DNA from: an uncultured Gammaproteobacteria bacterium
GTDB taxonomy: Bacteria; Patescibacteriota; Patescibacteriia; Magasanikbacterales; GWA2-37-8
Length of the DNA: 64,000 bases
NCBI GenBank assembly: GCA_964540825.1
Contig: CAZINT010000003.1
Location: 147,250 to 211,249 of the forward strand
Direction of reading: 5' to 3'
In this document: piece by piece, positions 7,119 to 30,462 of the stretch
Layout: each line of letters starts with the position of its first letter
How positions within the stretch are numbered: position 1 is the first letter of the stretch
Made by a program: the position numbers and the translations under genes
The notes under the pieces: model-generated
Seen by the model: the letters and a program-made list of their open reading frames with translations, nothing else
Databases searched by the model: none
What the model was told of the DNA's origin: nothing

Positions 7119-8228
7119 TTGGGCATGAATTTTATCACTACGTTCATGAACTATCGCGCCCTCCTCGCCCATTTTCCAAAAATCACCTATCCGCGGTATA
7201 AAAAATTGACCGCACATTTTGGCAATCTTGCGAATCTCTGGCAGGCAGAACTCGAAGAAATTGTTTCCTCTGGCCTCGATGCACCCATTGCCGATGAATT
7301 CATTCGCTGGCGCGAAGCAACAGATCCGGAAAAAATAATTAGTACGCTTGAACAAGAAGGCATCACAACAGTATCGATTGGCGAAGCACACTATCCACGA
7401 CTCCTCGGTGAAATTAACGATCCCCCGCACACGTTATTTATTCGCGGCACACTTACCAACCTTGAAGCAGCACCAAGCGTTGCAATTGTCGGCACACGCC
7501 GCGCCAGTGTGTACGGCAAACAGGTTTGCGAGCGACTCAGCGGCGAATTGGCTGCTCGGGGCGTCGTTATCGTCAGCGGGCTTGCGCTCGGCATTGATGG
7601 CGTCGCGCACGAAGGAGCGCTGAGGGCCAAGACACCAACTATTGCCGTGCTTGGCTCGGGAGTGAATCAAAAAAATATTACACCAACGACACATCATGAA
7701 CTGGCGAGGCGCATCATTGATGGCGGCGGGGCACTTATTTCAGAATACCCCCCAGGCTTTGCCCCAACCGCGTATTCTTTTCCGGCGCGCAACCGTATTA
7801 TTGCCGGCCTGACACTTGGTACATTGGTGATTGAGGCGCCGGTTGAATCGGGCGCACTTATCACCGCACGCGCCGCACTTGATTACAATCGCGATGTTTT
7901 TGCCGTACCGCACAACATAACGAATCACAGCGGCGAGGGGTGCAACCGCCTCATTGCCAAAGGCGCACTACTCGTAACAAATGGCGAGGCCATCATGGAA
8001 GCACTTAATTTAAAAAGTGTCGCAAGACCAGTCTCTGCCGAACGTCCGCTGCCTGAATCACCTATTGAAAAAGCAATCTTGCAGCTACTTACACGCGAAC
8101 CGACTCATATTGATACTATAATTAAAAACACCGCCCTTGAAAGCAGGACGGTGAATGGAAGTTTGGTAATGATGGAAATGAAGGGGTACGTGAAGAACGT
8201 GGGCGGGATGATGTATGTAGCTCTTTAA
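7119..8228 (+). CDS. dprA: DNA processing protein DprA (Smf)
   Basis: 369 aa; Rossmann-like DprA core IVGTRRAS..YG..LA..G..IVSGLALGIDG.AH.GAL and C-terminal winged-helix-like tail. Confidence 0.85.
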   Translation: MGMNFITTFMNYRALLAHFPKITYPRYKKLTAHFGNLANLWQAELEEIVSSGLDAPIADEFIRWREATDPEKIISTLEQEGITTVSIGEAHYPRLLGEINDPPHTLFIRGTLTNLEAAPSVAIVGTRRASVYGKQVCERLSGELAARGVVIVSGLALGIDGVAHEGALRAKTPTIAVLGSGVNQKNITPTTHHELARRIIDGGGALISEYPPGFAPTAYSFPARNRIIAGLTLGTLVIEAPVESGALITARAALDYNRDVFAVPHNITNHSGEGCNRLIAKGALLVTNGEAIMEALNLKSVARPVSAERPLPESPIEKAILQLLTREPTHIDTIIKNTALESRTVNGSLVMMEMKGYVKNVGGMMYVAL

Positions 8229-14654: not shown

Positions 14655-15434
14655 TTAATTGTTTTTAATTTGATCAAAATAATCTAACACTTCGCGTGTG
14701 AGGCGTTCGTACGCTTTAGCTGCTTTACCACTTGGCTCATAATGAAAAATACTTTTACCATAACTCGGCGCTTCAGCGAGGCGGACGGTGCGCGGAATGA
14801 CTGACCGAAAAATAGTATTTGGAAAATATTTATAGAGTTCTTGCAACACTTCTTCGCTGAGGCGATTGCGTGTATCAAACATGGTCAAAATCGCTCCGAG
14901 CACATTTAAATCTGGTTTAATATTATCACGTACCAGCTCGATCGTTTTAAGGAGCTGCCCCAGGCCTTCAAGCGCAAAGTATTCGGCTTGGACAGGGATA
15001 AGAATATGATCGGCCGCCACAAGACCATTGAGCGTTAAAATACCCAATGACGGAGGGCAATCAATAACAATATAATCGTAAGCATGTTTTATTTCACTTA
15101 AAATATCTAAAAGTTTTGATTCGCGGCCTTCAACTGCAACGAGCTCTACATTTGCTCCGGCCAGGTCGGGCGTTGCCGGCACAACACGGAGTCCTGCGTG
15201 CGCCGTATTCGAAATAACATCGTGGAGGCGTTCTTGCCCCATAATGGCGTGGTAGAGACCACGCGCCAATCCTTCGTTTTTGAGCCCAAGGCCAGAGGTT
15301 GCGTTGCCTTGTGGATCGAGGTCAACCAGGAGGACAAATTTGCCTGTTTCAGCAAGCCCGGCGGCCAAATTAACAGCCGTCGTAGTCTTGCCCACTCCCC
15401 CTTTTTGATTGACGACGGAAATAACAACGGACAT
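14655..15434 (-). CDS. parA: Chromosome partitioning ATPase ParA (Soj)
   Basis: Deviant Walker A VVNQKGGVGKTTTAVNLAA; start set at the internal Met (MSVVISVV) because the longer ORF would overlap the tRNA-Leu gene. Confidence 0.9.
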   Translation of the reverse strand: MSVVISVVNQKGGVGKTTTAVNLAAGLAETGKFVLLVDLDPQGNATSGLGLKNEGLARGLYHAIMGQERLHDVISNTAHAGLRVVPATPDLAGANVELVAVEGRESKLLDILSEIKHAYDYIVIDCPPSLGILTLNGLVAADHILIPVQAEYFALEGLGQLLKTIELVRDNIKPDLNVLGAILTMFDTRNRLSEEVLQELYKYFPNTIFRSVIPRTVRLAEAPSYGKSIFHYEPSGKAAKAYERLTREVLDYFDQIKNN

Positions 15435-15475: not shown

Positions 15476-15504
15476 GTTGACAAAATTCCAAAAGGAAACT
15501 AAAC
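15476..15504 (+). promoter_or_regulatory. Sigma70-like promoter TTGACA-N17-TAAACT upstream of tRNA-Leu
   Basis: Hexamers read directly, about 22 nt upstream of tRNA position 1. Confidence 0.45.
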
Positions 15505-15526
15505 TGTGCTCGAGACGCACCATATT

Positions 15527-15610
15527 GCCCAGATGGCGGAACTGGTAGACGCACGGGACTCAAAATCCCGCGATGGCGACATCATGAGAGTTCGATTCTC
15601 TCTCTGGGCA
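15527..15610 (+). tRNA. tRNA-Leu (anticodon CAA), long variable arm
   Basis: Acceptor GCCCAGA/TCTGGGC, anticodon loop CTCAAAA, long variable arm, T-arm GAGAG-TTCGATT-CTCTC, discriminator A. Confidence 0.85.
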
Positions 15611-15656
15611 CTAAACTAAATACAGCTCCTCACAACGGGAGCTGTATTTAGTTTAG
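15611..15656 (+). terminator. Perfect 19-bp-stem hairpin immediately 3' of tRNA-Leu
   Basis: ctaaactaaatacagctcc / ggagctgtatttagtttag with an 8-nt loop, followed by TTCT. Confidence 0.5.
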
Positions 15657-15766
15657 TTCTAAAAAAGAATCGAACCAAGGGTGGTAGGGAAAGCATTCCC
15701 CTACATCCTGAGGAAGGCACACGGAAACCCGCTGGTTGCCGTGAAGGAGCAAAGCGACACGTGAGC

Positions 15767-15782
15767 TTCTCTCTCTGGGCAC
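15767..15782 (+). repeat. Direct repeat of the 3' 16 nt of tRNA-Leu (attR-like integration scar)
   Basis: ttctctctctgggcac is identical to 15596..15611 (T-loop end, T-stem, acceptor 3' strand, discriminator). Confidence 0.6.
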
Positions 15783-15808
15783 ATACGAAATTTCTCTTGT
15801 TTTGTTGC

Positions 15809-15837
15809 ACCTTAAAACACTCCGTCAATGGAGTGTT
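15809..15837 (+). terminator. Rho-independent terminator
   Basis: aaaacactcc-gtcaat-ggagtgtttttt. Confidence 0.6.
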
Positions 15838-15998
15838 TTTTGACTGCTTACACACACTTAATCCCATGCTTAACGCTCATCAAGTCTTGACAAAACGAGA
15901 AATGTATCCCAGTATACGCGCACCAGAAAGTAGCGCGCACTAGATGCGCGCCTGGCCCTGTCTGCAGTGGTTTCTAAAAGAAGAGTGGGAGGATGCCT

Positions 15999-16355
15999 AT
16001 GCGATGGCTTGGAATTTTGTTTTTAGTAGCTGGCTGCGAGGCGAGCCAGCCAGCGCAGCCCGAGGCGCGAGACGGCGGCGCGACCGCCGACCTTGTCCAC
16101 CACCCTCGCTCCGATGGAGGCGTTGCCTGCACTCTAGCAGCGCCTCAAGACTGCCGCCTCGTCCTTGAGGGACCGAACTGGTGCTGCCCTGAGAGCGCGC
16201 TCTGCGGCGGCAGCGTGGGAGCGTGCGAGCCGTGCCCGTCCATGCGGGGGCTGCGCGAGCACGAGTCCGGACCAGGGCTCTGCTACAACCAGATCTGCTG
16301 CCCGAGCGGCCGCTCGTGTGCGGTATCCGGGCCAGGCCAGTACTTCTGCAACTGA
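15999..16355 (+). CDS. Hypothetical cysteine-rich lipoprotein (G+C-rich block)
   Basis: SD GGGAGG 6 nt before ATG 15999; MRWLGILFLVAGC lipobox signal peptide; 11 more Cys in about 105 aa (CC, CxxC pairs). Confidence 0.45.
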   Translation: MRWLGILFLVAGCEASQPAQPEARDGGATADLVHHPRSDGGVACTLAAPQDCRLVLEGPNWCCPESALCGGSVGACEPCPSMRGLREHESGPGLCYNQICCPSGRSCAVSGPGQYFCN

Positions 16356-16553
16356 CACCCCTCCTCGTTCAGCCGTTCTCTTCCCTCCTCCGGATGGCAG
16401 CCGCACCCCGATCGCTTGCCCTCCGTTCAGTGTCTAGACTTTTTGTAGGTACTGAACGCAAGCGGTCCTCTCAACAGCCTCTTACCTGGGGCTGTTTTGT
16501 TTTCTCGTTATTAACAAAAAATTATGCTATACTGAACACACTTTTATCACTGT

Positions 16554-17510
16554 ATGAATGTCTACCTGATTATTTTGTACGGCTATTTCTTGGTTGCCGG
16601 CGTACTTATCTATTTTTTTAACCGTGATCGCCAAAATCCGGCTGTTTTCCTAGGACAGCACCGCTCGCTCGCCTGGATACTTATGGGCGTACTCGTCTTT
16701 GGCATCATTTGCGGCGTTGATGCCCGGTTTATTGAAATCAATCGCCTTGTCGTGCATGAGGAAACTGTTGCTACACCTGATATAACCAAACCCATCCGCA
16801 TTGCCTTCATTGGTGATCTGCATGTAGGCGGCAACAAAAAAACCGCTTGGACACAAAAAGTAGTCAACAAAATTATCGAGCAAAAACCCGATCTCGTTAT
16901 TATCGGCGGGGACAGCGTCTATAATCATGGCGGAAATTTGGACGAAAGCGAATACCTGGAACCGCTGCGCGAATTACCAAAACATTTTCCTACGTACTAT
17001 GTTATGGGTAATCATGAATATGGTTATGCCGATCTGGGGTTTCAAGAAAATGCGGACCAATCAGCCGCGGTGATGCAAAAAATGAATGATATGGGACTCG
17101 TGCTCCTTAAAAATCAGTTAGGATGCCCGAAGGTGGGCAGTGAACGAGTATGCCTCTATGGAATTGATGACGTGTATCGTAATCAGGTTAGTTTTGACGA
17201 AGTGACCAAATGGAATAAAACTGCACCTTTAATTTTAGTTACTCACAATCCTGACGGTATACTCGCGTGGCCCGACGCAACTTCTGTGCCAGCTCTTACC
17301 CTCGCCGCACATACCCACGGCGGACAAATCTGGCTGCCGTTTATCGGCCCTCTTGGGCGTGTCCCGGTCCGCTTGGGCACGAAGTATTATCGCGGACTGA
17401 ACGACTATAATGGCCTGAAGATTTTTACCACTGTTGGCGTAAGCGAATCGGGCGGGCCGATTAGATTTTTGACACCGCCCGAAATTGCGATTATTACACT
17501 CGCACCGTAA
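16554..17510 (+). CDS. Membrane-anchored metallophosphoesterase (calcineurin-like, YkuE-type)
   Basis: 318 aa; two N-terminal TM helices, GDLH..GN..GNHE..H..GH metal-binding motifs; extended -10 tgcTATACT upstream. Confidence 0.8.
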   Translation: MNVYLIILYGYFLVAGVLIYFFNRDRQNPAVFLGQHRSLAWILMGVLVFGIICGVDARFIEINRLVVHEETVATPDITKPIRIAFIGDLHVGGNKKTAWTQKVVNKIIEQKPDLVIIGGDSVYNHGGNLDESEYLEPLRELPKHFPTYYVMGNHEYGYADLGFQENADQSAAVMQKMNDMGLVLLKNQLGCPKVGSERVCLYGIDDVYRNQVSFDEVTKWNKTAPLILVTHNPDGILAWPDATSVPALTLAAHTHGGQIWLPFIGPLGRVPVRLGTKYYRGLNDYNGLKIFTTVGVSESGGPIRFLTPPEIAIITLAP

Positions 17511-17513
17511 ATT

Positions 17514-17548
17514 AAAAATACCTCGATTTTATCGAGGTATTTTTTACG
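17514..17548 (+). terminator. Rho-independent terminator
   Basis: aaaaatacctcgat-ttt-atcgaggtatttttt. Confidence 0.75.
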
Positions 17549-17625
17549 CTCAGTTAGTCTTTAACCACGAAAACCAAAAAATAAATACCCGTTTTTTACA
17601 CTTCTTCTTACAAATATTATTACAA

Positions 17626-17690
17626 GAAAAAGTGAAAGACCCACGAATGGGTCAGGCGGAGGATGACCGGCCGAAGCCAGGGTCATCCAC
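17626..17690 (-). terminator. Conserved family terminator cassette (two hairpins) 3' of gene 17716..18933
   Basis: Coding-sense CCTGAC-GACCCATTCGTGGGTC-TTTCACTTTTTC preceded by hairpin GGATGACC..GGTCATCC; identical copy at 23903..23965. Confidence 0.55.
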
Positions 17691-18090
17691 CTGGGGGTGG
17701 AAGGTACGTTCGGCGCTACCGAGGCAGCGCGGGCGAGAGAAGGAGGGGCGCGGTCGGAGCAGCCGGTCCGACGAGCTGCCAGATACTGTTTCCGATCTGC
17801 ACCCAGTACGAGCCGGCGGGGGCGCCGGCGGGAAGGGTTGCAGTGTAGGCGCTGCTCAGGGCAACGACGTCGAGGGCGACCATGCCTCCGGCGACGATCG
17901 CTCCAACAGCGAGGAGGCCGGCGAGCGTAGCTCTGCCGTTCGAGCCGTCCGGCGAGATGTAGTCCGGGCGGCCGCCCGGACCGATGACGAGACCCCTTCT
18001 TCGAGCAGCTGTTACATCCCCGAACATGCTGCCGGGGCCACTCCAGATGCGGACGGTCTGGGGGGTGGGGGTGGTGGGAGGGGTGGGGGT
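17635..18090. repeat. About 455-bp direct repeat copy 1 (pairs with 23911..24376)
   Basis: Essentially identical for about 325 bp then about 90% identical; covers the C-terminal module plus terminator of two paralogous genes. Confidence 0.85.
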
Positions 18091-18933
18091 GAGAGGAGGA
18101 TACCCCATTTGTTCCGGGCTGGGGAGAGGGCCATAGGTCCCATTGTAGCGCGGCCCACCTGGCGGCGGCGGAATCAGCGGAGTTGGGTTACCAGGACTCC
18201 AGACCCCCGAACCGGGCTGTCCGGGCTGCGGGCCAGTTTGGAAAAAGGCTTGCGGCCCGGTTCCAGGCCTGATTCCTGCCGGCGGCGGGAGCGGTGGCGG
18301 GAGTGGCAGCGGAGCTCCGGGTGCCCGATAACCCCCTGGTGGCAAGAGTCTGCCTCCGGGGGCTTGGTACCGCAGGCCGCCCGAGGGCGGATCGCCCCCC
18401 GGACAAGGCGGCTGCCCGAGTCCGCCACAGAAACGCGCACCAAGGATGCCGAGCGCTGCAGCAGCAGGAACTAGCAGGTTCAACGGTGAAAGTGTGCCTG
18501 GTGCGGCGAGCGGAGCAAGATCGGCGCCTTTTAGATCAAGGTGGTAGTGGTACTTCTCGAGGGCGTCCTGCATCTTCTCGATATCCATTTCGGGGTGGCG
18601 CGAAAGATAGTCGCGCACAGCTTCGGAGCCGATATGCCTGATCAGATTAGCCCGCGCAAGACGAGGAATCGAGCCCCACTCCTCAGGGGTATACCTATGC
18701 GGGGTCTCGATGTAGTCCGTTAGTCCGCACACCGGACAGTGCCCCTGGGGCTTGATGCGAACCAGCGGTGGCACTTCGAACACCATCACAGTGGCATCTG
18801 GCATGATCTCGGCAGGTGGCTGGCCGGCCTCGCGCATGCCCTCGTGGTTACAAATATGGGGCTGGTAGGCAAAGGCCCGCACGCTGGCGAACCAGCACAG
18901 CAGCATCACGGCCAATGTCACAATTCTTTTCAC
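17716..18933 (-). CDS. Secreted modular protein, type-A C-terminal module (unique Cys/His N-domain + Pro/Gly-rich linker)
   Basis: GTG start with perfect SD AGGAGGTGA; signal peptide MKRIVTLAVMLLCWFASVRAFA; PPLPPP/TPTPPTTPTP linkers; hydrophobic C-terminus GLLAVGAIVAGGMVALDVVAL...WQLVGP. Confidence 0.7.
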   Translation of the reverse strand: MKRIVTLAVMLLCWFASVRAFAYQPHICNHEGMREAGQPPAEIMPDATVMVFEVPPLVRIKPQGHCPVCGLTDYIETPHRYTPEEWGSIPRLARANLIRHIGSEAVRDYLSRHPEMDIEKMQDALEKYHYHLDLKGADLAPLAAPGTLSPLNLLVPAAAALGILGARFCGGLGQPPCPGGDPPSGGLRYQAPGGRLLPPGGYRAPGAPLPLPPPLPPPAGIRPGTGPQAFFQTGPQPGQPGSGVWSPGNPTPLIPPPPGGPRYNGTYGPLPSPEQMGYPPLTPTPPTTPTPQTVRIWSGPGSMFGDVTAARRRGLVIGPGGRPDYISPDGSNGRATLAGLLAVGAIVAGGMVALDVVALSSAYTATLPAGAPAGSYWVQIGNSIWQLVGPAAPTAPLLLSPALPR

Positions 18934-19222
18934 AGATCACCTCCTGCTCGCCACGGCGAGCGTCGTTGTTTGATACCCTGAACAGAGTGCCGCCTCAAAC
19001 CAATAAGGCTGCTCCCACATGTCGTTCTTCTTTCCTCCTTTTTTAAAAATCAATCCAGTGACCAAGTACTTCCTGATCGCTAGAATATTATTTTAAAATA
19101 AGTATTTTTTATATTTTCACCCCTCTCGTTCAAAGTCAGTGGTTCCTTGTTTGTTTCCTAAGCATAAGAAACAAAGTGAGGGCGACTTTGAACGAGAGAA
19201 GAATTTGCAAGCCGCCCGGTTG

Positions 19223-20203
19223 TCAGTGCTGACGATCACGCCGCGGCTGACCGGAGATCAGCATCTGATAGAGCTGCCGTGCTCTGGCTCGCCAGTACTG
19301 CTCACGCTGCGCACGGAAAAGCGGACGGTTGATATTACTTGGCTGGCTGCCAGTGTTAGGGTGGTGGTACTGGTAACCAATGGGTCCGCGGTGGATATGC
19401 CGCGGCAGCTCAACCAGCGGACTTCCCTGCCGCTGACCATCGTGATGTAGCTCGACCGGTTTGCCAAAAAACTTGTCGAGCGGGGGTGAGCCGTTGGCCA
19501 TGAGGAGCAAGTTGAACAAGTTCATCTCGTAGTAGAGACCGGCCCAGCCCTGATGCCGGAACGGCGCTGACCCATCGGAATTGAACTGGTTGCGGAGTGC
19601 CTGATAACTCATGTCGAGGACACCAGTCATCGTAGTCCCCACAAAAGGTGGCTGCGCGTCTTCTTCAGCTGCCACATAGTAACAAGTCTCGTCGACTGGT
19701 GTTCCTGGAGCAAAGAACGACTGGTTTCCCAGCGATTGTCCGGGCAACACGAGGCCACGACCTTGCGGCATCGGCTCGCCAAAAGCAGGAGCGCTGCCAG
19801 GTATCCCCGGCAAACGAAGCGGGCCAACGAGCGGCTGACCGGGCAACTGGAGTGTTTGGGGGCCACCAGGCAGACCTGGTCCACTCAAACCGCCGCCACC
19901 TTCCACTGCCGGACCGGAAACCGGCGGAAGCGGCAACCGCTGACCAGGGCCAGGGCCTCCAACCGGTCCGATAGTGTCAGTTCGCTGCCCGGTCGGAAGA
20001 TTCGGAAGATATTCGCCGACAAGTGGCGAAGCTGGCGCTCCACCACCCAGTGGCGGAAGCCCGGGCGCACCACGCCCCGGAATACGGAACGCAGGCGGCG
20101 GGAATCCTCGTTGGATGACCTGAGCCCTTACCGCATAGGGCGTAAAGAGCGCCACCGCACAGACGAGCACTGCAAGACACGATCGCAAACACCTGAATGG
20201 CAT
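19223..20203 (-). CDS. Secreted Pro/Gly-rich protein with a unique C-terminal globular domain
   Basis: SD AAGGAGG; signal peptide MPFRCLRSCLAVLVCAVALFTPYAVRA; long PG-rich linker; its own long inverted-repeat terminator at 19121..19192. Confidence 0.65.
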   Translation of the reverse strand: MPFRCLRSCLAVLVCAVALFTPYAVRAQVIQRGFPPPAFRIPGRGAPGLPPLGGGAPASPLVGEYLPNLPTGQRTDTIGPVGGPGPGQRLPLPPVSGPAVEGGGGLSGPGLPGGPQTLQLPGQPLVGPLRLPGIPGSAPAFGEPMPQGRGLVLPGQSLGNQSFFAPGTPVDETCYYVAAEEDAQPPFVGTTMTGVLDMSYQALRNQFNSDGSAPFRHQGWAGLYYEMNLFNLLLMANGSPPLDKFFGKPVELHHDGQRQGSPLVELPRHIHRGPIGYQYHHPNTGSQPSNINRPLFRAQREQYWRARARQLYQMLISGQPRRDRQH

Positions 20204-20313
20204 GTACAGCCTCCTTATGAGTTACTATTCAAGCAGACACTTTTTTCACAATGCTTCAATTTTCCCTACATCATACTTTCCCCTCCCTCCCCACTCCAAG
20301 AAATATTCTTGAC

Positions 20314-20341
20314 GTCGGAAGGAAGACTCGCGAAGCGAGTC
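20314..20341 (-). terminator. Conserved family terminator (GACTCGC-gaa-GCGAGTC + TTCCTTCC)
   Basis: Same CCTG-GACTC-loop-GAGTC-TTC motif as the other five cassette terminators. Confidence 0.5.
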
Positions 20342-20374
20342 AGGATGATCAATGAGCGGAGGCGGGTTCTCCCC

Positions 20375-21334
20375 TTACTGCAGCAGTGGCAGCAGGAGCC
20401 CGGGGGGCCTTGTGCCGGGTAGGACTGGGAGACCGGGCCCCGAGGGCGGCAGGCGCAGCGGGCCTAGCGGGAGGGTGGCAGTGGGGGTGAGAAGCACCGC
20501 TCCAGCAGCGGCAGCAGCAGGGATCAGTCGATAGGCCTGTTTGGTCGCAGCGTCGACCACTGCCAGGCAGCGTCCCGGAACTGCAGCACAGGCGGTACCG
20601 ACGACGGCGACAGCTTGAGCCGTGTAGTAGGCTCCGACCAAGATGACGATGCCGCCTGAGACGAGTGCGCCGTTGACGGCGACCTGGAGGGGGGTCTCCG
20701 GGTAGCCGCCGAAGGCTCCTCCGCCGTCGGGGACCCAGCCGCGGAGGCCGCCAAGGGGATTTTGACCAAAGGCTCCGGGGGTGGGATAGGCAGGCAGGAG
20801 ACCGCGATTGAGCTGCCCATCAGGGACACCCAGCGGTCGCCAGCCTTTGTATGCAGCCTGCGGCGCCTGCACACGAGCAGGCCCACGTGGCGTATCATTG
20901 CACTCCAAACTCCCGACAGTCGGAATGGCGTTGCCTTGGCATACCATTGGTCCGGGTATACCCTGAACACTGAAGAGGGAGACACCGGGGAACATGGAGC
21001 GAATCATAGATTCATTTCCATCCTGCATACTGTAGGGGTAAAGTGTAAGGCGCCACACTCCCACGCCGAAGTCTCCGGTCTCCACGTCCCGAACATAGCA
21101 GTGATCAGCGGCACCGGGCCGTTGGCGCCAGAGCTGCCAATGACCGTGCTCCGGCGGGCTGCCGTTCACCCGACTGGTCCGAAGCAAATAGAAGTTTGGC
21201 CCGGGGAAAACCAGCACCACCACGTTGCAGACCACCATAATATCCCTATTGTCAGGTGGCGGAACTGCTTGTGCGAGTGGTGGCTGACTGGCCAGCGCCA
21301 ACAGCAGCAAGGCTATCATTTTCAACCAACGCAT
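20375..21334 (-). CDS. Secreted modular protein, type-B C-terminal module
   Basis: Start at internal Met MRWLKMIALLLLALASQPPLAQA (signal peptide, SD AAGGAAGG); C-terminal module PLQVAVNGALVSGGIVILVGAYY..GTACAAVPGRCL..LIPAAAAAGAVLLTP + Leu/Pro tail. Confidence 0.65.
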   Translation of the reverse strand: MRWLKMIALLLLALASQPPLAQAVPPPDNRDIMVVCNVVVLVFPGPNFYLLRTSRVNGSPPEHGHWQLWRQRPGAADHCYVRDVETGDFGVGVWRLTLYPYSMQDGNESMIRSMFPGVSLFSVQGIPGPMVCQGNAIPTVGSLECNDTPRGPARVQAPQAAYKGWRPLGVPDGQLNRGLLPAYPTPGAFGQNPLGGLRGWVPDGGGAFGGYPETPLQVAVNGALVSGGIVILVGAYYTAQAVAVVGTACAAVPGRCLAVVDAATKQAYRLIPAAAAAGAVLLTPTATLPLGPLRLPPSGPGLPVLPGTRPPGLLLPLLQ

Positions 21335-21657
21335 GCGTTTGTCCTTCCTTTTGTGATGTCTACGAGTTTGCCGACCGCCGGCACACTTTTCTCCTCTCCC
21401 GAAAAACATGTTTATATTTTTCGGGAGAGAAATAAATTCAAACATTCTCATCGTGAATATAATGAGAATAAGTACATGTTCAAATTTTTCCTTTAGTGAT
21501 ACTCACAAGCGTAAGTATTCAACACAGGAGCCGAAGAGTGTCGGCTGCACCTAGTTACTTTTTTCTTAATCTACCTACGACCACCACCTGACTCGCATCA
21601 GGTGGTGGTCGTCCCCTCCTGTGAATCCGGTCTCACGCGCCGGCGACGGTTGGATTG

Positions 21658-23385
21658 CTATCGGCGATAGGCGAAGCCGAACTCCGGAAGGACGGTGAAG
21701 CTCTCACGAGAGTAGCCCGTCGTCTGGCTTGGCATGACGAGCACCACGTTGTCCGGATTGGACCGATCGACTACCGGCTCTCCAGTCACGAGTTCGCCAG
21801 TTGACCGCAGGTACCCGACGGTAGCAGCAGCAAAGAAACCGAACTGGCGACGAATACCGCTCTTGCCCAGGTAGACCTCGATCGATGGCTTGAACCCCAG
21901 CAAGAAGTACTTCTTCGAAGAATCGCCCTTCTGACGGAACTCTTCGTCTGACAGGTCATGACCGCCACCGCCGATGACAACCCCGAGATCGATAGCAACA
22001 TTTGGACTGGGGTTATAAGAATACCCTCCGTACCCGACAGCAGCGACATCATTCCTGCCTGAGAGCTGCAGGCTCAGACCTCCACAGATGGCGTTGTTGC
22101 TCAGCTGGTTGTGAAAGAAACAGAACTTGCCGCCCAGATTTCCACCAAGCGCACCCTCGCGATTCAGCTCGTAGCGAAAGAGTCCGCCCCCGTAGAGCGT
22201 CATCATGAAGTTGCTGTCACCCCGGTCCGCCTGGATCAGGGCCCGCTGAGCGCCGATAGCACCGGTGCAGTATTGGGCGACCTGGATGGGATCGAAATTC
22301 TCGCCGCCGGCCACGTTCCGACGCACCCACCGCTCGCAATCCTTCGCGCTGCTGAACTCCGGGGGGTTGGCGGGGTTGCCGGTGAGCGGCCGGCTACCGA
22401 CCTGAGCCTGAGGCAGTGTTGCTCCGGGCGGCTGAGCAGTCTGGGGGTTGCAGTAGGCATTCACCCCCTCTGGGGTGTTCTGCGCGGCGGTCCCGACCGC
22501 CTTGAGATACTCCCAGGTCTTGGCCACGCAGTCGGGGCTGCCCGGCTGCGGCTGCTGGGGTGCCTGACCCTGGATGCGCGGAGCCAGCTGGTGGGCCTGC
22601 GCCGTGAGCGTCTGGCACGTGGCGTCCTTCCCCTGAGGGTCGTGCTGGTAACAGCAGCCCACTACCATGCCCTTGTTTGAGAAGCACTGCTGCAGGTTGC
22701 CTCCCAGGCTGGCATCGGCCACACGTGCGACCCGGCACAGGGAAACGTTTGCCGACTCGGCAGGGAAAGAGTCGCAGCAGGCCCGCACTCGCTCGTTGAC
22801 GGCCTGAGGGGTATTGTAGCTTGCGTCCGCGGTTGGTGATGGGGCGGTCGTCTGGGCGAGACACGTCTCGAGGAGCTGAGCGGGCGGAACAGCCGCAGGC
22901 CCCGCGGTGAGGGGGGCGCCCGCCGTGCCCGGCAGGGGCGCCGGAGGGGCGGACTGCGGAGCCACAGGAGGGGCAGCCGCAGGGGCGGGGGCGGCTGGCG
23001 TGGAGGCGACGGCGACGGGCGGCGACGTACTGCTCAGCTGAGTGACAGCACCGCTCGCCTGCTGGCACAGGCTCCTGAAGAGGCGGCCGTTCGGCGTGTT
23101 GGTCTGCTGAGCAAGGTGGTTTGACCAGCAGCAATTCTGGGTTCCGCGCCAATAAGCCGCCAAGTCCTTGCTCTTGTCCGGGACCACCGTCAGGCAGCCC
23201 TTCATGGCAGCAACCGATGCGTCGATCATCTCCCGTGAGGGCGGGCCAGCTACTTGCGCTGTGGGGGCGCTGGGCTGGCTGCTGGCCGCCGGCTTGGCAT
23301 CGGCGTTGGCGTGCAGTGGCGCGAGCCACAGCAAGAGTAGCGTCAGCAAAGCCGCTGACAGGCACGAAAACTTGGATCGTGACAT
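21658..23385 (-). CDS. Secreted Cys-rich repeat protein with a Gly/aromatic-rich beta-type C-terminal domain
   Basis: Start at MSRSKFSCLSAALLTLLLLWLAPLHANA with SD AAGGAGG; three or more C..CC..C repeats separated by Ala/Pro linkers; C-terminal about 200 aa with alternating hydrophobic/Gly/aromatic pattern ending FGFAYRR. Confidence 0.65.
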   Translation of the reverse strand: MSRSKFSCLSAALLTLLLLWLAPLHANADAKPAASSQPSAPTAQVAGPPSREMIDASVAAMKGCLTVVPDKSKDLAAYWRGTQNCCWSNHLAQQTNTPNGRLFRSLCQQASGAVTQLSSTSPPVAVASTPAAPAPAAAPPVAPQSAPPAPLPGTAGAPLTAGPAAVPPAQLLETCLAQTTAPSPTADASYNTPQAVNERVRACCDSFPAESANVSLCRVARVADASLGGNLQQCFSNKGMVVGCCYQHDPQGKDATCQTLTAQAHQLAPRIQGQAPQQPQPGSPDCVAKTWEYLKAVGTAAQNTPEGVNAYCNPQTAQPPGATLPQAQVGSRPLTGNPANPPEFSSAKDCERWVRRNVAGGENFDPIQVAQYCTGAIGAQRALIQADRGDSNFMMTLYGGGLFRYELNREGALGGNLGGKFCFFHNQLSNNAICGGLSLQLSGRNDVAAVGYGGYSYNPSPNVAIDLGVVIGGGGHDLSDEEFRQKGDSSKKYFLLGFKPSIEVYLGKSGIRRQFGFFAAATVGYLRSTGELVTGEPVVDRSNPDNVVLVMPSQTTGYSRESFTVLPEFGFAYRR

Positions 23386-23817
23386 TGGACGGACCTCCTT
23401 GCCCACTCTGGGCAATGACTGATGGTTTCAATCTTTTTCAATCAGTGGGCAGCCACTTTGGCCGCCATGATGAATACGATATCCCCCATTCAGCTAAGAC
23501 AAATAGGCTCTCTACCGGTCTTAATTGAATGGGGGAATTTTTCTAATTATTTTTTAAATGAACACACACTGTATTCGTCCTTATTTGTCAGACAGTCTAA
23601 CAATCTAAAATTGCTCTGGGTAAAGGACAATGTTTTTCAGAGCAAAACGAGTAGTACCACATTTTGGCCGAAACGTCAATATAGGTTGAGGTTTTTGTAT
23701 CCACAGATCAAATTAGGTCTTTTTTAGCTAAAAAAATAATCTTTTATCGTGATTACCGCCTCCTCCCGGGATTCAAGCTGTAGTTACATTTCTTTTTTAA
23801 ACTGAAATATCTATACT

Positions 23818-23848
23818 TAAAAAACTTACTTAAAAAGTAAGTTTTTTA
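23818..23848. terminator. Perfect bidirectional hairpin terminator
   Basis: aaaaaacttactt-aaaaa-gtaagtttttt. Confidence 0.6.
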
Positions 23849-23902
23849 GCGAATATTCAGCATCTTTTTCTTTCTTGAACTCCAAGATACATGCTTAGAA
23901 TA

Positions 23903-23965
23903 CCAGAAAGAAAGACCCACGAATGGGTCAGGCGGAGGATGACCGGCCGAAGCCAGGGTCATCCA
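23903..23965 (-). terminator. Conserved family terminator cassette, copy identical to 17626..17690
   Basis: GACCCACGAATGGGTC hairpin plus upstream GGATGACC..GGTCATCC hairpin. Confidence 0.55.
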
Positions 23966-24376
23966 CCTGGGGGTGGAAGGTACGTTCGGCGCTACCGAGG
24001 CAGCGCGGGCGAGAGAAGGAGGGGCGCGGTCGGAGCAGCCGGTCCGACGAGCTGCCAGATACTGTTTCCGATCTGCACCCAGTACGAGCCGGCGGGGGCG
24101 CCGGCGGGAAGGGTTGCAGTGTAGGCGCTGCTCAGGGCAACGACGTCGAGGGCGACCATGCCTCCGGCGACGATCGCTCCAACAGCGAGGAGGCCGGCGA
24201 GCGTAGCTCTGCCGTTCGAGCCGTCCGGCGACATGTAGTCCGGGCGGCCGCCCGGACCGATGATGAGACCCTTTCTTCGAGCGGCTGTTACATCTGCGAA
24301 CACCCAATCGGTCCAACTGCCCCTACCACTCCAGACGCGGACGGTCTGAGGGGTGGGGGTGGTGGGAGGGGTGGGA
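23911..24376. repeat. About 455-bp direct repeat copy 2 (pairs with 17635..18090)
   Basis: See copy 1. Confidence 0.85.
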
Positions 24377-24975
24377 GATTGGCCAGGCTGTTGAAGCCCC
24401 ATTCCCGGTCCTTGTAGGCCTGGGAGCGGGCTGGGGGGCGGCGGGTATGTAGGAAGACGAAGCGGACCGGGGGCAGGGGTGTATTGGCCAGGGAGGGGCA
24501 GACCCGGAGGTTGGCCTTGAGGGCCGGATGGCGTTCCCATCATCATCTTCAGACCGGGCGGATAGTACCGCCCACCCGCTTCAAATACGGTTGGCCCCGA
24601 GGGAGTAGCCTGTATGTACATGGGCGCTCGGGGCGCCGGGTGATCCGGTCCTTGGCCACGCCTGCCATAGCAGGGGTCCTGGGGGTTTTCAGCATTACCA
24701 AAGATCACTTTGTTTTCCGTGATCTGCTGAGCGAGCCGCTGAGAATCGAGGGCATCAAGACTAAACCGATTAACAAAAAATTCCTCGTGCAGACGATTTT
24801 GCACCGCCGACTCTCGGTAGTCCCGTTTGACAATGGACTGGTCGGGGCAGATGTAAAACTGAATAAATATCGGCCGCCCATCCGGCCCCGTCGGGAACAG
24901 CTGAGCGCCGCCTTGTCCGGCCAGAACAAAAAAGAACACTGTCGCGAGAACTACTGTTGCTACTATTCGCGTCAT
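23992..24975 (-). CDS. Secreted modular protein, type-A C-terminal module (different N-domain from 17716..18933)
   Basis: SD AAAGGAGT; signal peptide MTRIVATVVLATVFFFVLAGQGGAQ; C-terminal 110 aa identical to gene 17716..18933. Confidence 0.7.
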   Translation of the reverse strand: MTRIVATVVLATVFFFVLAGQGGAQLFPTGPDGRPIFIQFYICPDQSIVKRDYRESAVQNRLHEEFFVNRFSLDALDSQRLAQQITENKVIFGNAENPQDPCYGRRGQGPDHPAPRAPMYIQATPSGPTVFEAGGRYYPPGLKMMMGTPSGPQGQPPGLPLPGQYTPAPGPLRLPTYPPPPSPLPGLQGPGMGLQQPGQSPTPPTTPTPQTVRVWSGRGSWTDWVFADVTAARRKGLIIGPGGRPDYMSPDGSNGRATLAGLLAVGAIVAGGMVALDVVALSSAYTATLPAGAPAGSYWVQIGNSIWQLVGPAAPTAPLLLSPALPR

Positions 24976-25056
24976 GACGTTGTTACTCCTTTCATGACTG
25001 ACCTAAGACCACTTTGGTGCTTTATTTTTCTCCTTTTCTGGTTTATAAAAAAACCA

Positions 25057-25085
25057 ACTAAACTGTCCTCCAAGAAACATGTCAA
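25057..25085 (-). promoter_or_regulatory. Sigma70-like promoter TTGACA-N17-TTTAGT for gene 23992..24975
   Basis: Hexamers read on the minus strand in the AT-rich spacer. Confidence 0.4.
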
Positions 25086-25167
25086 TTGGTTTTTCTAAAA
25101 AATAATTTTAAATGCATTAAAACAAATATTTTACTTTCCCTTTTCTCACCAGAACACCAAAGTTCCA

Positions 25168-25198
25168 AAGGAAAAAAGGAAGACTCGGCGAGCGAGTC
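25168..25198 (-). terminator. Conserved family terminator (GACTCG-gcgag-CGAGTC + TTCCTTTTTTCC)
   Basis: Same motif class as the other cassette terminators. Confidence 0.5.
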
Positions 25199-25241
25199 GA
25201 GGCAGGAAGTTCAAAGAGCAGCAGACAGCTGCCGGGTACGT

Positions 25242-26333
25242 CTAGCGGAGCAACGGAGCCGCTGGAAGGTACAATGACGCTGCCGGTTTCGCCAGCTGCC
25301 AACCCAAGTTGCCAACCTTGATCCAGATGGATCCGAGCGGAGCGCCCGGTGGCAGTGTTGTTGTGACGGCAGCATCAAGCGCTACCCATTCGAGAGCGAC
25401 GAGGCCGGCAGCCACAACTGATCCGACAGCGAAGAAGCCAACCAGACTGCCTTGGGCGTCTTGCGCCGGATCTCGCGATCCGAGTTCGGGTCCAAAGGGA
25501 CCCCAACGAACACCCCCGGCTCTGGCCTCTTGTTGGCCCTGAAGCCCTTGTCTGAAGGCAGAGAGAAGACCACTACTTACTCCACGGTAGATGCGGAGGC
25601 CGAGGTTGGATGGGGGTGGTAGCTGAAGCGTAGAAGGAGTGCCGGGAAGTGCCGGGGTGGTAAGCTGGGGTGGGAGGCGGAGTGGAGACGCAGGTTGTGC
25701 AAAAACGAGTTCACCACTTGGTGTTGGCGCTCGAAAAAATACCGGTCCACGCCGAGGCAGCGTTTCAGCTACAGGATTTTCTTGTCCGGAAGTCTGGGGT
25801 CCGCGCGGACGGCAATCCCCCACTTTATGTTTTTGGTTACAGGAATTATGTAGACCCCACATCTCCCGAACACCACTCGGATAGTTCCAGTACAGAATCG
25901 AGTACTCGCTTCGAGGCGGACCAAGCACCGGAGCGAGCCCGGCGATATCATCGTCGTTCAAACGGAAGTACTGATCCCCTTTGTATCCTTGGCGCTCTTC
26001 GCGCTCCCCCGGACCAAAAAGATCACGCTGACGCTGCCACCGATAGAGCCAGGTGGTGTCGACCGAGCTCTGCACCTTGTACCACCAACCGCTTGCGCTG
26101 CAGAACCCTTCGATGATGTAGTGAGCCTTTTGACCCGCCCATGGGTCGACGGTTCTTCCCAGCGGCCCGACCTCATGGCCGATTCGGAACTGAATAAGGG
26201 TCGGGTGGTTACAGTGCGGACACAGCGTGCTCGCTTCCGGCTGATGGACGATCTTGGGGTCTTTCTGCCCCCATGCGATAGACGGGCTTGCGAGAAGCCC
26301 GACAAAATAGAGTGCAAGCCAGAACAGTTTCAT
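25242..26333 (-). CDS. Secreted modular protein, divergent type-A C-terminal module
   Basis: SD GGAGGT; signal peptide MKLFWLALYFVGLLASPSIAWGQ; Cys-containing N-domain; C-terminus LVGFFAVGSVVAAGLVALEWVAL..TLPPGAPLGSIWIKVGNLGWQL. Confidence 0.7.
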   Translation of the reverse strand: MKLFWLALYFVGLLASPSIAWGQKDPKIVHQPEASTLCPHCNHPTLIQFRIGHEVGPLGRTVDPWAGQKAHYIIEGFCSASGWWYKVQSSVDTTWLYRWQRQRDLFGPGEREERQGYKGDQYFRLNDDDIAGLAPVLGPPRSEYSILYWNYPSGVREMWGLHNSCNQKHKVGDCRPRGPQTSGQENPVAETLPRRGPVFFRAPTPSGELVFAQPASPLRLPPQLTTPALPGTPSTLQLPPPSNLGLRIYRGVSSGLLSAFRQGLQGQQEARAGGVRWGPFGPELGSRDPAQDAQGSLVGFFAVGSVVAAGLVALEWVALDAAVTTTLPPGAPLGSIWIKVGNLGWQLAKPAASLYLPAAPLLR

Positions 26334-26463
26334 TGAGTACCTCCAACGATGTATAAAATACTTACATAAAGAAGCGTGTGTGTCAATCTAGTTACAAAAA
26401 CCGTCTCGTAATTTTTAGGCAACCACCAGTTCTTTTCCTTCCCTATCTAAGAACAACTTCTTA

Positions 26464-26493
26464 AAGAGAGAAAGAAGACTCAGAAATGAGTCT
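26464..26493 (-). terminator. Conserved family terminator (AGACTCA-gaaa-TGAGTCT + TTCTTTCTCTC)
   Basis: Same motif class. Confidence 0.5.
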
Positions 26494-26543
26494 TGGCGGG
26501 AAGGACAAGGAACATGAGGCGGGCGTGACAAGTACTCACAAGC

Positions 26544-27434
26544 CTACGGCATCCAGAGAGGGGGCGGAGCGGACGGAAGGAGGAGTGGACGCGAAGGTTT
26601 GGCGTCCATCACGGGTGTCAGTACCGTTGCCCCTAGCGAAGCGACTCCGAACACGGGAACCAGACGCCAGATCTGACGAGTAAGGGCATCTTGGACGAGC
26701 TTGCAGCTCGCGGGACTACTCAGACAGGCGCTAGCAAGCACGGTCGCACTCTGGACGAGGTAGACTGACCCATAGTAGACCACGAAACCGCCTGCGATGA
26801 TGGCGCCACCGGCTACGACTTGGGTAGGAGTCACCGGATAGCCGCTGACACCTCCCCCGTCGCCGGGTGACCAGGTGCTGCCAGGCGGAGCGAGGATAAG
26901 GGCGCGCGGGGTGGGGTGGGTGGGATAGGCAGGCGGCTGCGGACCACCCGGGAGGGGTGGGGGCAGGACGGGCGGTGGCGGAGTTGGAAGGGGTGGGGGC
27001 AGGGCAGGCGGCGTAGGGGCGGCGGGTGGCCGGATATTCGGCGCCAGCGGAGCGAGTCCGAACGAGGGCAGGCGTGGAGGGCCAACGAGCACATGTTCGG
27101 CCTCCCCGGGTCTGGGGCGAGCGTAGCGCACCCTGCCATCCGGACCGATCTCGATGACAGGCTGCAAAGCACCGGGCGGCACCGGAGCACCCGGTTCCGC
27201 GGGCTTGACGCCATTTCCCTCGAGCCAACGATCTCCCAAAGACTGCTTGGACGGGACCTCCACCAGCTTCCCATCCTTCCATTCGAAAGCCGGGCCGCCG
27301 CCTCCTGGCTTCGGCGGATCACTCCCTGGCGGCGAGGCATAGGCGAAACGGATCCATAGCACGTTCCAGATTTGATCCGGTCTGACCAGACCAAGCGCGA
27401 CACAACTCAGAATACACAGCAGCAATCGTTGCAT
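26544..27434 (-). CDS. Secreted modular protein, type-B C-terminal module, extremely Pro-rich N-region
   Basis: Start at MQRLLLCILSCVALGL with SD AAGGAGGTG; PPALPPPLPTPPPPVLPPPLPGG linker; C-terminal module VTPTQVVAGGAIIAGGFVVYYG...ASACLSSPASCKL...LGATVLTP. Confidence 0.65.
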   Translation of the reverse strand: MQRLLLCILSCVALGLVRPDQIWNVLWIRFAYASPPGSDPPKPGGGGPAFEWKDGKLVEVPSKQSLGDRWLEGNGVKPAEPGAPVPPGALQPVIEIGPDGRVRYARPRPGEAEHVLVGPPRLPSFGLAPLAPNIRPPAAPTPPALPPPLPTPPPPVLPPPLPGGPQPPAYPTHPTPRALILAPPGSTWSPGDGGGVSGYPVTPTQVVAGGAIIAGGFVVYYGSVYLVQSATVLASACLSSPASCKLVQDALTRQIWRLVPVFGVASLGATVLTPVMDAKPSRPLLLPSAPPPLWMP

Positions 27435-27662
27435 GCGCACCTCCTTTTCAAAAACGTTTTTGGAACAACCTTGCACTGACACAACTGTAGCGGTGCACAA
27501 CTAGCATTTTTACCGCTAGTCATGCCGACTGATTTCAGTTGAGCAGCAGCATTGTGTAGTACACAAAAAATGTGCAATTGTCAAACACATACTCGACTAC
27601 CGCTACCCATAGCTCGCGAAGCTGTTAAATTCACGAACACACACTTTTTCATATCTTTAAAA

Positions 27663-27700
27663 ACTCCTGCAAAAGAAATGCTGCAGGAGTTTTTTTAATC
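27663..27700. terminator. Perfect bidirectional hairpin terminator
   Basis: aaaaactcctgca-aaagaaatg-ctgcaggagttttttt. Confidence 0.65.
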
Positions 27701-27748
27701 GACGGCCAAATTGTATATTCTTTCTTTTCTCCCAAAATTTTTCTTAGG

Positions 27749-27779
27749 AGCAGAGAAAGAAGACTCAATGAATGAGTCT
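27749..27779 (-). terminator. Conserved family terminator (AGACTCA-atgaa-TGAGTCT + TTCTTTCTCTGC)
   Basis: Same motif class. Confidence 0.5.
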
Positions 27780-27823
27780 CGGCAGGTGAATCAAAGAGCG
27801 ATGGGCAGGTTGTGGTTCAAAAC

Positions 27824-30347: not shown

Positions 30348-30462
30348 AAACATTTTTAAAAGCTTTTCTAGCGTAGCTGTTTTTAGCCAAAAAGGCAAGT
30401 GGAAAAGAGAGTTGCAAAAAATACGCGTCACTGTATACTCGACTCAGAATGGAGGGTCCACA

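Follow-up and report, generated by a model that had tools for sequence, protein, structure and literature searches.

Why does the 3′ end of a tRNA-Leu gene appear a second time shortly downstream of the gene itself, and does this second copy mark the border of a genomic island? The question is raised by a stretch of 64,000 nucleotides (the window, in which all positions not assigned to another locus are counted) of contig CAZINT010000003.1 from an uncultured bacterium placed by GTDB in the Magasanikbacterales (assembly GCA_964540825.1), and it was approached by comparison with about 150 fetched loci, designated by L-numbers. The second copy closes an insert without genes, and this insert is one copy of a family of ~170-nt elements located at the tRNA-Leu 3′ end in several Parcubacteria-group lineages of the candidate phyla radiation (CPR), the Magasanikbacteria and the Yanofskybacteria/Paceibacterota. 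Small and conserved, this insertion module varies between strains and is specific, in these bacteria, to the tRNA-Leu(CAA) 3′ end.

The tRNA-Leu(CAA) gene (15527–15610, plus strand) is intact and encodes no CCA (ARAGORN; Rfam RF00005, 57.6 bits), its end being placed at 15610/11 by ARAGORN and Rfam together, and a promoter scan lists a promoter-like site upstream of it at 15477–15505. The preliminary description of this DNA reported that the 16-mer TTCTCTCTCTGGGCAC at the tRNA end recurs downstream, and both exact copies are indeed present on the plus strand, the first (S1, located by sequence match and by alignment to the Rfam tRNA) at 15596–15611 and the second (S2, located by sequence match) at 15767–15782. 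Only its first 15 nucleotides are the end of the tRNA, the sixteenth base being flanking sequence; the repeat begins with the final two T-loop bases, runs along the 3′ strands of both the T-stem and the acceptor stem, and takes in the discriminator A plus one more base. No other match with up to three mismatches exists in the 64-kb window, and in a shuffle control with up to two mismatches allowed, two or more matches of the 16-mer were obtained in none of 100 shuffles.

The origin of the second copy becomes apparent when the locus is compared with its relatives. The divergent pair of parA and tRNA-Leu(CAA) is kept across CPR lineages and allows the locus to be followed; in the window, ParA lies at 14655–15434 on the minus strand, and its homologues, 80–93% identical, come from sources labelled Candidatus Magasanikbacteria or Patescibacteria. 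An exact look-up of the window ParA returned no record, and a ParA-based scan of GTDB genomes gave only distant relatives among the matches listed, L007 included. In the closest relatives L084, L095 and L140, the gene order is asnS, metallophosphoesterase, tRNA-Leu, parA and parB, with a terminator directly after the tRNA and the metallophosphoesterase gene next to it. Also, L081, with a ParA 93% identical to that of the window and an identical tRNA 3′ end, bears a terminator (CTTAAAACTCC..GGAGTTTTT) homologous to window positions 15809–15837. Since in L081 the tRNA-Leu directly abuts this native terminator, the window carries an insertion between the two, and the empty site, with the tRNA directly joined to the native flank, is seen in L081, L084 and L140. 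The insert amounts to 171 bp (15612–15782 or, equivalently, 15596–15766), with 155 bp between the repeats and S2 as its right-hand junction. The intrinsic terminator previously noted at 15809–15837 (plus strand), a hairpin followed by a T-run, is real and, from its homology to the one directly 3′ of tRNA-Leu in L081, is the tRNA's original terminator, displaced downstream by the insert. A side observation at this junction is that several empty-site relatives (L081, L095 and L140; GGGCACCA) encode the CCA end when compared at window 15608–15613, and that neither the window nor any module-bearing locus does so, A or T coming after GGGCAC in them; CCA is likewise not encoded in some empty loci, and a link between CCA and the module is uncertain.

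The most direct evidence that this DNA behaves as a unit comes from near-identical strains. The loci L148 and L150, from two different sequencing runs, and L149, from a metagenome-assembled genome (MAG) of NCBI, have an identical ParA protein and an identical tRNA-Leu, and the filled allele of the first two differs from the empty allele of the third by one clean 172-nt indel plus two substitutions just 3′ of S2, the flanks being otherwise identical. In the filled allele, the tRNA end (AACTCCCACCTCGGGCAC) is followed by a copy of the native terminator that is ~80% identical to it, by GGTGGGAGTTGAAC, a perfect antisense of the T-loop and T-stem, by the body, by an 18-nt copy of the tRNA end and finally by the native terminator. 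Moreover, the bases after S1 and those after S2 are chimeric relative to the empty allele, as expected from a reciprocal crossover just after the tRNA between partners that are similar but non-identical. The module is thus gained or lost as a unit between near-identical strains. The same alternation is observed at larger distances: the window is filled and its closest relatives L081 and L084 (ParA 93% and 87% identical) are empty; L129 (81%) is filled and its closest relative L140 (89% identical to L129) is empty; and L007 is filled and L147 (92% identical to L007) is empty. Also, L118 and L120 are identical over 182 nt, up to a point within the S2-like copy where all similarity ends, which identifies S2 as a recombination breakpoint. 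A supposed additional decayed copy of the tRNA end after the L149 terminator was not significant and was discarded.

How far does this architecture extend? A metagenome scan with the 3′ 26-mer of the window tRNA produced 37 loci, most of them plain empty sites, and among the filled ones the insert of L129/L143 is clearly homologous to that of the window (nhmmer E = 1.6e-9), while the inserts of L118/L120, L109/L134 and L138 are unrelated in sequence and alike in architecture. For L007, a Paceibacterota/Yanofskybacteria-like MAG whose ParA is 53% identical to that of the window, the sequence behind its own tRNA-Leu(CAA) runs through a hairpin and a G+C-rich stretch to 19 nt that repeat the end of this tRNA exactly; the L007 tRNA end differs in sequence from that of the window, and the offset between its two copies is 173 nt, against 171 nt in the window. 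The modules of L148/L150 and L152–L154 were found among relatives of L007. In all of these, four parts recur: a terminator-like hairpin, 10–14 nt of T-loop antisense, a body rich in G+C whose hairpins covary and a 16–21-nt sense copy of the tRNA 3′ end, the sense and antisense copies of each module matching the host's own tRNA. The distance from the tRNA end to the end of the second copy is 168–182 nt in every module locus, the antisense copy of the T-loop and T-stem 3′ strand lies 45–80 nt downstream of the tRNA in every module, and the repeats are 16, 18, 19 or 21 nt long. Across three different tRNA sequences, S2 matches its own tRNA at 16/16, 19/19 and 18/18 positions; in L129, L118 and L109 it is decayed, as expected of fossil copies, the body of L129 being intact. 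An nhmmer profile built from the five distinct modules of the homologous type (type 1) recovers only these copies (E from 1e-14 to 1e-19), with none elsewhere in the ~150 fetched loci or in the rest of the window. As a separate observation, in L152 the first-copy hairpin restarts after the second tRNA-end copy (+178 to +213) and is identical up to the contig end, so that this locus has either two tandem modules or a direct repeat of at least 56 nt.

At the level of the window insert, all parts can be placed on the plus strand. The perfect hairpin described earlier at 15611–15656 is confirmed by an inverted-repeat search (19-bp stem, 8-nt loop, not followed by a T-run); as the terminator-like hairpin of the module itself, it shares homology with those of the other type-1 modules and loosely resembles the native L081 terminator. 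It is followed at 15657–15665 by a degenerate continuation of the inverted copy that corresponds to the acceptor part (inverted repeat and inspection) and at 15666–15675 by segment A, AGAATCGAAC, the exact antisense of the T-loop and the start of the T-stem 3′ strand (GTTCGATTCT, 15590–15599). These two segments and S1 generate a long imperfect palindrome (~15589–15677), laid out as 10 perfect base pairs, a mismatch zone and 18 perfect base pairs. Further downstream, body hairpin 1 (GTAGGG...CCCTAC, 15684–15704) shows compensatory changes against L129 and covariation over the five modules, the GAGG motif at 15710–15713 is invariant in the alignment of all five type-1 modules, body hairpin 2 (CACGGAAACC CGCT GGTTGCCGTG, 15720–15743) has two compensatory pair changes against L129, and the 3′ motif GCGACACGTGAGC (15754–15766), conserved in the alignment, stands directly before S2. 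Between S2 and the displaced terminator, comparison with L081 reveals a 28-nt spacer absent from that locus (ATACGAAATTTCTCTTGTTTTGTTGCAC, 15783–15810), which by a faint resemblance, judged by eye, may be a decayed older copy of the tRNA end.

The conservation of these parts follows their pairing. In the five-module alignment, the helix between T-loop and antisense segment, the hairpin and body hairpin 1 are supported; the first of these is paired in all five members, with three covarying columns that track three different T-loops (TTCGATT, TTCAAGT and TTCAACT). The proportion of paired cells is 85%, against 36–47% in slid controls, and pairs with changes on both sides number 15, against 4–6 in the slid controls, a value reached in none of 500 shuffles. 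The window and L129 alone differ by four compensatory pair changes across two hairpins. Between L148 and L153, the hairpin is 57% and the body 72% identical, and the antisense segment (14/14) and S2 (18/18) are perfectly kept. The motifs GAGG, CCCGA and GCGAC..GAG are maintained between two candidate phyla. In addition, G-U cells outnumber A-C cells on the tRNA strand (12 vs 3) and the relation is inverted on the opposite strand (6 vs 11), and the minimum free energy is lower on the plus strand in four of the five members; this asymmetry and the fold energies both indicate folding of the tRNA-sense strand, whether as RNA or as single-stranded DNA.

Is the module, then, an RNA gene of the host? 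This is the main rival to the element reading, and the two are not mutually exclusive. According to it, the module would be a functional structured RNA, a ~170-nt 3′ trailer co-transcribed with tRNA-Leu, whose tRNA-end mimic S2 and anti-T-loop would serve processing (RNase Z, RNase P, CCA-adding enzyme) or regulate or titrate tRNA-Leu, with absence due to loss by recombination between S1 and S2. The position of the module between the tRNA and the real terminator, with a first hairpin devoid of a T-run, agrees with such a trailer, as do the covarying hairpins and conserved motifs, the preference for the transcribed strand, the perfect retention of antisense segment and S2 while the body diverged by 28%, and the failure to find a mobility gene in any of the places searched. 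On the other hand, a host RNA gene is not usually present in one strain and absent from another with identical ParA and flanks, the occurrence is patchy at all depths, and S2 has decayed at the three loci named above, with the body still intact in L129. Also, the downstream genes vary by lineage, so that the module is not the leader of a particular gene, no acceptor-like helix involving S2 is both stable and conserved across the members, and no Rfam family covers it: with Rfam 15, at gathering and permissive thresholds, the window, L153 and L007 gave only the tRNA, the remaining hits being far below threshold and to generic miRNA hairpin models. A trailer RNA is regarded as rather unlikely. 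Under either reading, the module is a compact marker of strain-level variation. A tRNA-like gene on the minus strand was also contemplated and rejected, because the pairs of its acceptor are disrupted in the window, in L007 and in L148, and the strand asymmetry points to the plus strand.

The palindromic layout brings in another possibility, namely, that the structure arose in place without any mobility, template-switching at the terminator palindrome giving the inverted copy and slippage the direct copy, the structures being retained by chance or through gene conversion with the tRNA. In favor of this, one long quasi-palindrome is formed by S1, the hairpin and the antisense segment (perfect over 34 nt per arm in L118), and the module hairpin resembles the native terminator. 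A further case in point is found in L098, L099 and L101, where a 43-bp insertion containing a hairpin and ending in GGCAC follows the GGGCAC of tRNA-Leu; it is absent from L095, L096, L097, L100 and L102, which have the same ParA and, in this short allele, a metallophosphoesterase start codon that overlaps the encoded CCA. However, the 90-nt body is left unexplained, because it is not derived from the tRNA (its local alignment to the tRNA is no better than that of shuffles, p = 0.57, which also disposes of the idea that it is a decayed second tRNA-Leu), and homologous bodies with conserved motifs occur in two candidate phyla that share only ~55% identity in ParA. The constant size of ~170 nt is not accounted for either, and the hairpin of L148 is only ~80% identical to the native one in otherwise identical strains, so that the insert is not a recent local product. 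A purely local origin is thus considered very unlikely.

We turn now to the island that the repeat was originally thought to delimit. The preliminary description saw in it an integration scar at the boundary of an accessory region, possibly belonging to a degraded island; in its fullest version, the repeats would be the attL/attR remnant of a large integrase-borne island that brought in a lipoprotein gene and an array of secreted-protein genes, its integrase being lost or lying outside the window. Tyrosine-integrase islands are classically recognized by just such a direct repeat of the tRNA 3′ end with its start in the T-loop (PMC4383910), the G+C content is 54–67% at 16–29 kb against ~46% in the flanks, and the lipoprotein open reading frame (ORF) at 15993–16355 is not found in L081, L084 or L129. 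Nevertheless, the standard rule places the inserted DNA in the interval from the rebuilt tRNA to its displaced fragment (PMC4383910), which here measures only 155 bp, and the array lies beyond the conserved metallophosphoesterase gene, in an independently variable slot next to asnS that the 16-mer does not bound. A third copy of the 16-mer was looked for near asnS, where an island might end, and neither there nor anywhere else in the 64 kb was one found. In agreement with the reported lack of an integrase, no Pfam integrase domain was detected in the 20 window ORFs tested (all 10 at 15993–28903 and 10 further long ORFs whose function was not evident), and none of the ~37 tRNA-Leu loci showed an integrase island, their downstream genes being housekeeping ones. 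L007, L148 and L153 carry the module and no island; in L007, the same architecture is followed only by folD, sua5, rnc, nusB and dnaE, and the duplicate belongs to a conserved, covarying structured module, both of which run counter to an island boundary. It is also implausible that large islands decayed to ~170 nt with the same internal parts at seven or more independent loci. The large island is thus largely refuted and is held to be extremely unlikely; what survives of the scar is that an insertion left a displaced or duplicated 3′ end of the tRNA as the second copy, after which the native terminator now stands.

The accessory gene array is unrelated to the 16-mer repeats, and its surroundings merit a separate account. 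The proline-rich secreted-protein array (17716–28903, 58% G+C) is located between the metallophosphoesterase gene (16554–17510, 71% identical to that of L081) and asnS (29052–30353). Nothing occupies the corresponding slot in L084, L095 and L140, and in L081 four unrelated, cysteine-rich secreted proteins are encoded there; the slot is a hotspot of lineage-specific secreted-protein genes, occupied in the window by this 11-kb array. The array contains two paralogue groups with common C-terminal hydrophobic domains. A 300-nt direct repeat, 100% identical (17634–17933 and 23910–24209), lies within two proline-rich paralogues on the minus strand (17716–18933 and 23992–24975) whose C-terminal 116 amino acids are ~90% identical overall, which suggests a recent gene conversion or duplication within the array. 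Another member (19223–20203, minus strand) ends in an LHH nuclease domain (PF14411, E = 2e-14) of a type found in polymorphic toxins. The ORF at 15993–16355 (plus strand; 120 amino acids, 67% G+C), with a lipoprotein-like signal sequence, many cysteines and no Pfam match, occupies the interval between the displaced terminator and the metallophosphoesterase gene (15838–16553) and is a second, separate insertion beside the module. In the same interval, a TTGACA stretch at ~15887–15892 looks promoter-like by eye and is not listed by the promoter scan, and a palindrome at 15932–15952 is terminator-like on the minus strand. The repeats at tRNA ends are routinely read as island boundaries, and here such a reading would mis-assign 13 kb of accessory genes.

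What could then have placed the module at this site? The explanation we favor, with slightly better than even confidence, is an insertion element of miniature size that is non-autonomous, has the tRNA-Leu 3′ end as its specific target and rebuilds the tRNA end, with the 16-mers as its junction repeats. For this, a small element with its own copy of the tRNA 3′ end plus terminator would meet the chromosomal tRNA end, and a Campbell-type crossover, site-specific or driven by homology, would occur between the T-loop and the first bases after the tRNA. The crossover would rebuild the tRNA and push the original end out as S2. Being non-autonomous, the element would rely on a recombinase acting in trans, or else the filled allele would pass on through uptake of DNA and homologous recombination. 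The antisense T-loop and the hairpins could constitute a folded recombination substrate or, alternatively, a read-through trailer RNA needed by the element. Genes for DprA (7125–8228, plus strand) and RecG (123–2213, minus strand) are located near the locus. DprA is required for DNA uptake, and its presence in the window makes a spread via uptake and homologous recombination plausible, being compatible with allele exchange by natural transformation in this small-genome bacterium.

Several points weigh against this explanation. A double-stranded circle of 171 bp is physically unlikely, so that a single strand, a larger carrier or allele transfer would be needed, and the search turned up neither a free or circular form nor a larger parent. 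The module itself, the tested window ORFs and the surroundings of the other copies yielded no recombinase, transposase or reverse transcriptase, which makes the mobilizing activity entirely hypothetical. The presence/absence pattern could also stem from an old module that was inherited vertically and has been deleted precisely, more than once, between S1 and S2. Moreover, no more than five distinct type-1 sequences underlie the covariation, the alignment is poor in the second half of the body, types 2 and 3 are tied to type 1 by architecture only and not by demonstrated homology, and the sampling was centered on tRNA-Leu loci, which weakens the case that the module occurs at this site only.

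The search for a mobilizing partner was extended to viruses. IMG/VR was queried with the conserved body motif, with two "antisense...sense" architecture patterns and with both tRNA ends, and INPHARED was queried by blastn; no relevant match was obtained, so that a phage or attP origin was discarded, and no autonomous relative using the same attachment (att) site was found in IMG/VR, INPHARED or the fetched loci. The match in L155 was due to chance, being an unrelated G+C-rich contig without a tRNA. A group I intron, a bulge-helix-bulge intron, a retron, a casposon, a diversity-generating retroelement and an IS110 bridge RNA were rejected on size and junction rules, and also because there are no fixed duplications or terminal inverted repeats and because reverse transcriptase, Cas1 and DEDD genes are absent nearby. 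Several kinds of selfish DNA are drawn to the surroundings of this tRNA-Leu. In one Magasanikbacteria lineage (L087–L089, ~1601–2452), a LAGLIDADG homing-endonuclease ORF starts at and overlaps the tRNA-Leu(CAA) 3′ end. In another lineage (L145, 3502–3750), a GIY-YIG ORF lies a few bases from tRNA-Leu on its upstream (parA) side, with a run of N downstream of the tRNA.

No description of such modules was found in the literature, and comparison with known systems gives partial likenesses. P4-like elements integrate in leuX, the tRNA-Leu with anticodon CAA, and islands in tRNA genes follow what is known as the Islander principle; Williams is said to have described in 2002 a T-loop "sublocation" of tRNA integration sites. 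The module shares with tyrosine-integrase tRNA islands an intact rebuilt tRNA, a displaced 3′ fragment as a direct repeat with identity from the T-loop to the 3′ end, a terminator-like hairpin of its own and the tRNA-Leu(CAA) target. Unlike these islands, it has 155–160 bp of unique DNA, no integrase, excisionase or cargo, a constant size across lineages, an internal antisense T-loop copy and covarying hairpins, and no full-length parent was found. In terms of the features by which tRNA islands are recognized, the direct repeat and the empty site in relatives are present, and an integrase and cargo between the repeats are not.

Integron attC sites and the forked hairpin of CTX-phi attP(+), which is used by XerCD, are folded single-strand recombination substrates. 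The module is similar to them in its ~90-nt imperfect palindrome, where sense and antisense copies of the target pair and a mismatched center separates perfect duplexes, in the preference for one strand and in the direct target repeats that flank the integrated copies. In contrast to attC, the order of its conserved triplets does not fit R/L boxes by inspection, and its target is a tRNA end and not attI or dif. The likeness, drawn by analogy, is one of resemblance only, and any link to IntI or Xer would be hypothetical.

The 3′ external transcribed spacer (3′ETS) of leuZ in E. coli is functional, and tRNA-like 3′ ends exist on other RNAs. Like spacers of this type, the module is structured on the transcribed strand, lies between tRNA-Leu and the terminator and ends in a mimic of the tRNA 3′ end; unlike them, it is strain-variable, has direct repeats of the tRNA end and shares no sequence similarity with known spacers. 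Transposable elements of miniature size with inverted repeats (MITEs) and palindrome-associated transposable elements (PATEs), derivatives of IS elements that include the hairpin-ended ones of IS200/IS605, are also small, non-coding, hairpin-rich and variably present. However, for the module there are no terminal inverted repeats, the repeat length varies as given above, the copy is single and at one site according to the nhmmer profile, and no cognate transposase was found. An IS200/IS605 PATE or a TnpB omega-RNA module differs in that here a duplication is present and the position of the junction in the T-loop varies; also, no tnpA or tnpB was found in the tested window ORFs or in neighboring gene calls.

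Finally, cis-mobilizable elements (CIMEs), described in streptococci, are attL–attR cassettes without recombination genes that can be mobilized in cis (PMC5704250). The module, like them, is flanked by att-like repeats, has no recombinase of its own and would depend on functions supplied in trans. Unlike it, CIMEs are kilobases long and traceable to relatives with common att sites among integrative conjugative or integrative mobilizable elements; the module is ~170 bp, and no such relative was found for it. Of the known systems, the module most resembles a CIME-like, att-only cassette cut to ~170 bp with the signature of a folded strand. A more far-reaching proposal, which we put forward as speculative and judge unlikely, is that these modules form an undescribed class of ~170-nt, geneless, selfish or semi-selfish CPR elements that home to the tRNA-Leu(CAA) 3′ end by means of built-in sense and antisense copies of the host tRNA from the T-loop to the 3′ end. 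These copies would serve as a folded att site on a single strand or, in analogy to bridge or guide RNAs, as an RNA that resembles a guide, and the element would restore the tRNA and move with no gene of its own.

If the module is mobile, it would be among the smallest site-specific elements known and would point to a trans-acting recombination activity, or to targeting based on RNA or a single strand, in CPR bacteria. If it is instead a trailer RNA, it would represent a new family of structured RNAs linked to a tRNA. In both cases, a gene-less, structurally conserved element tracks the tRNA sequence of its host in both orientations and is polymorphic in these uncultured, small-genome bacteria.

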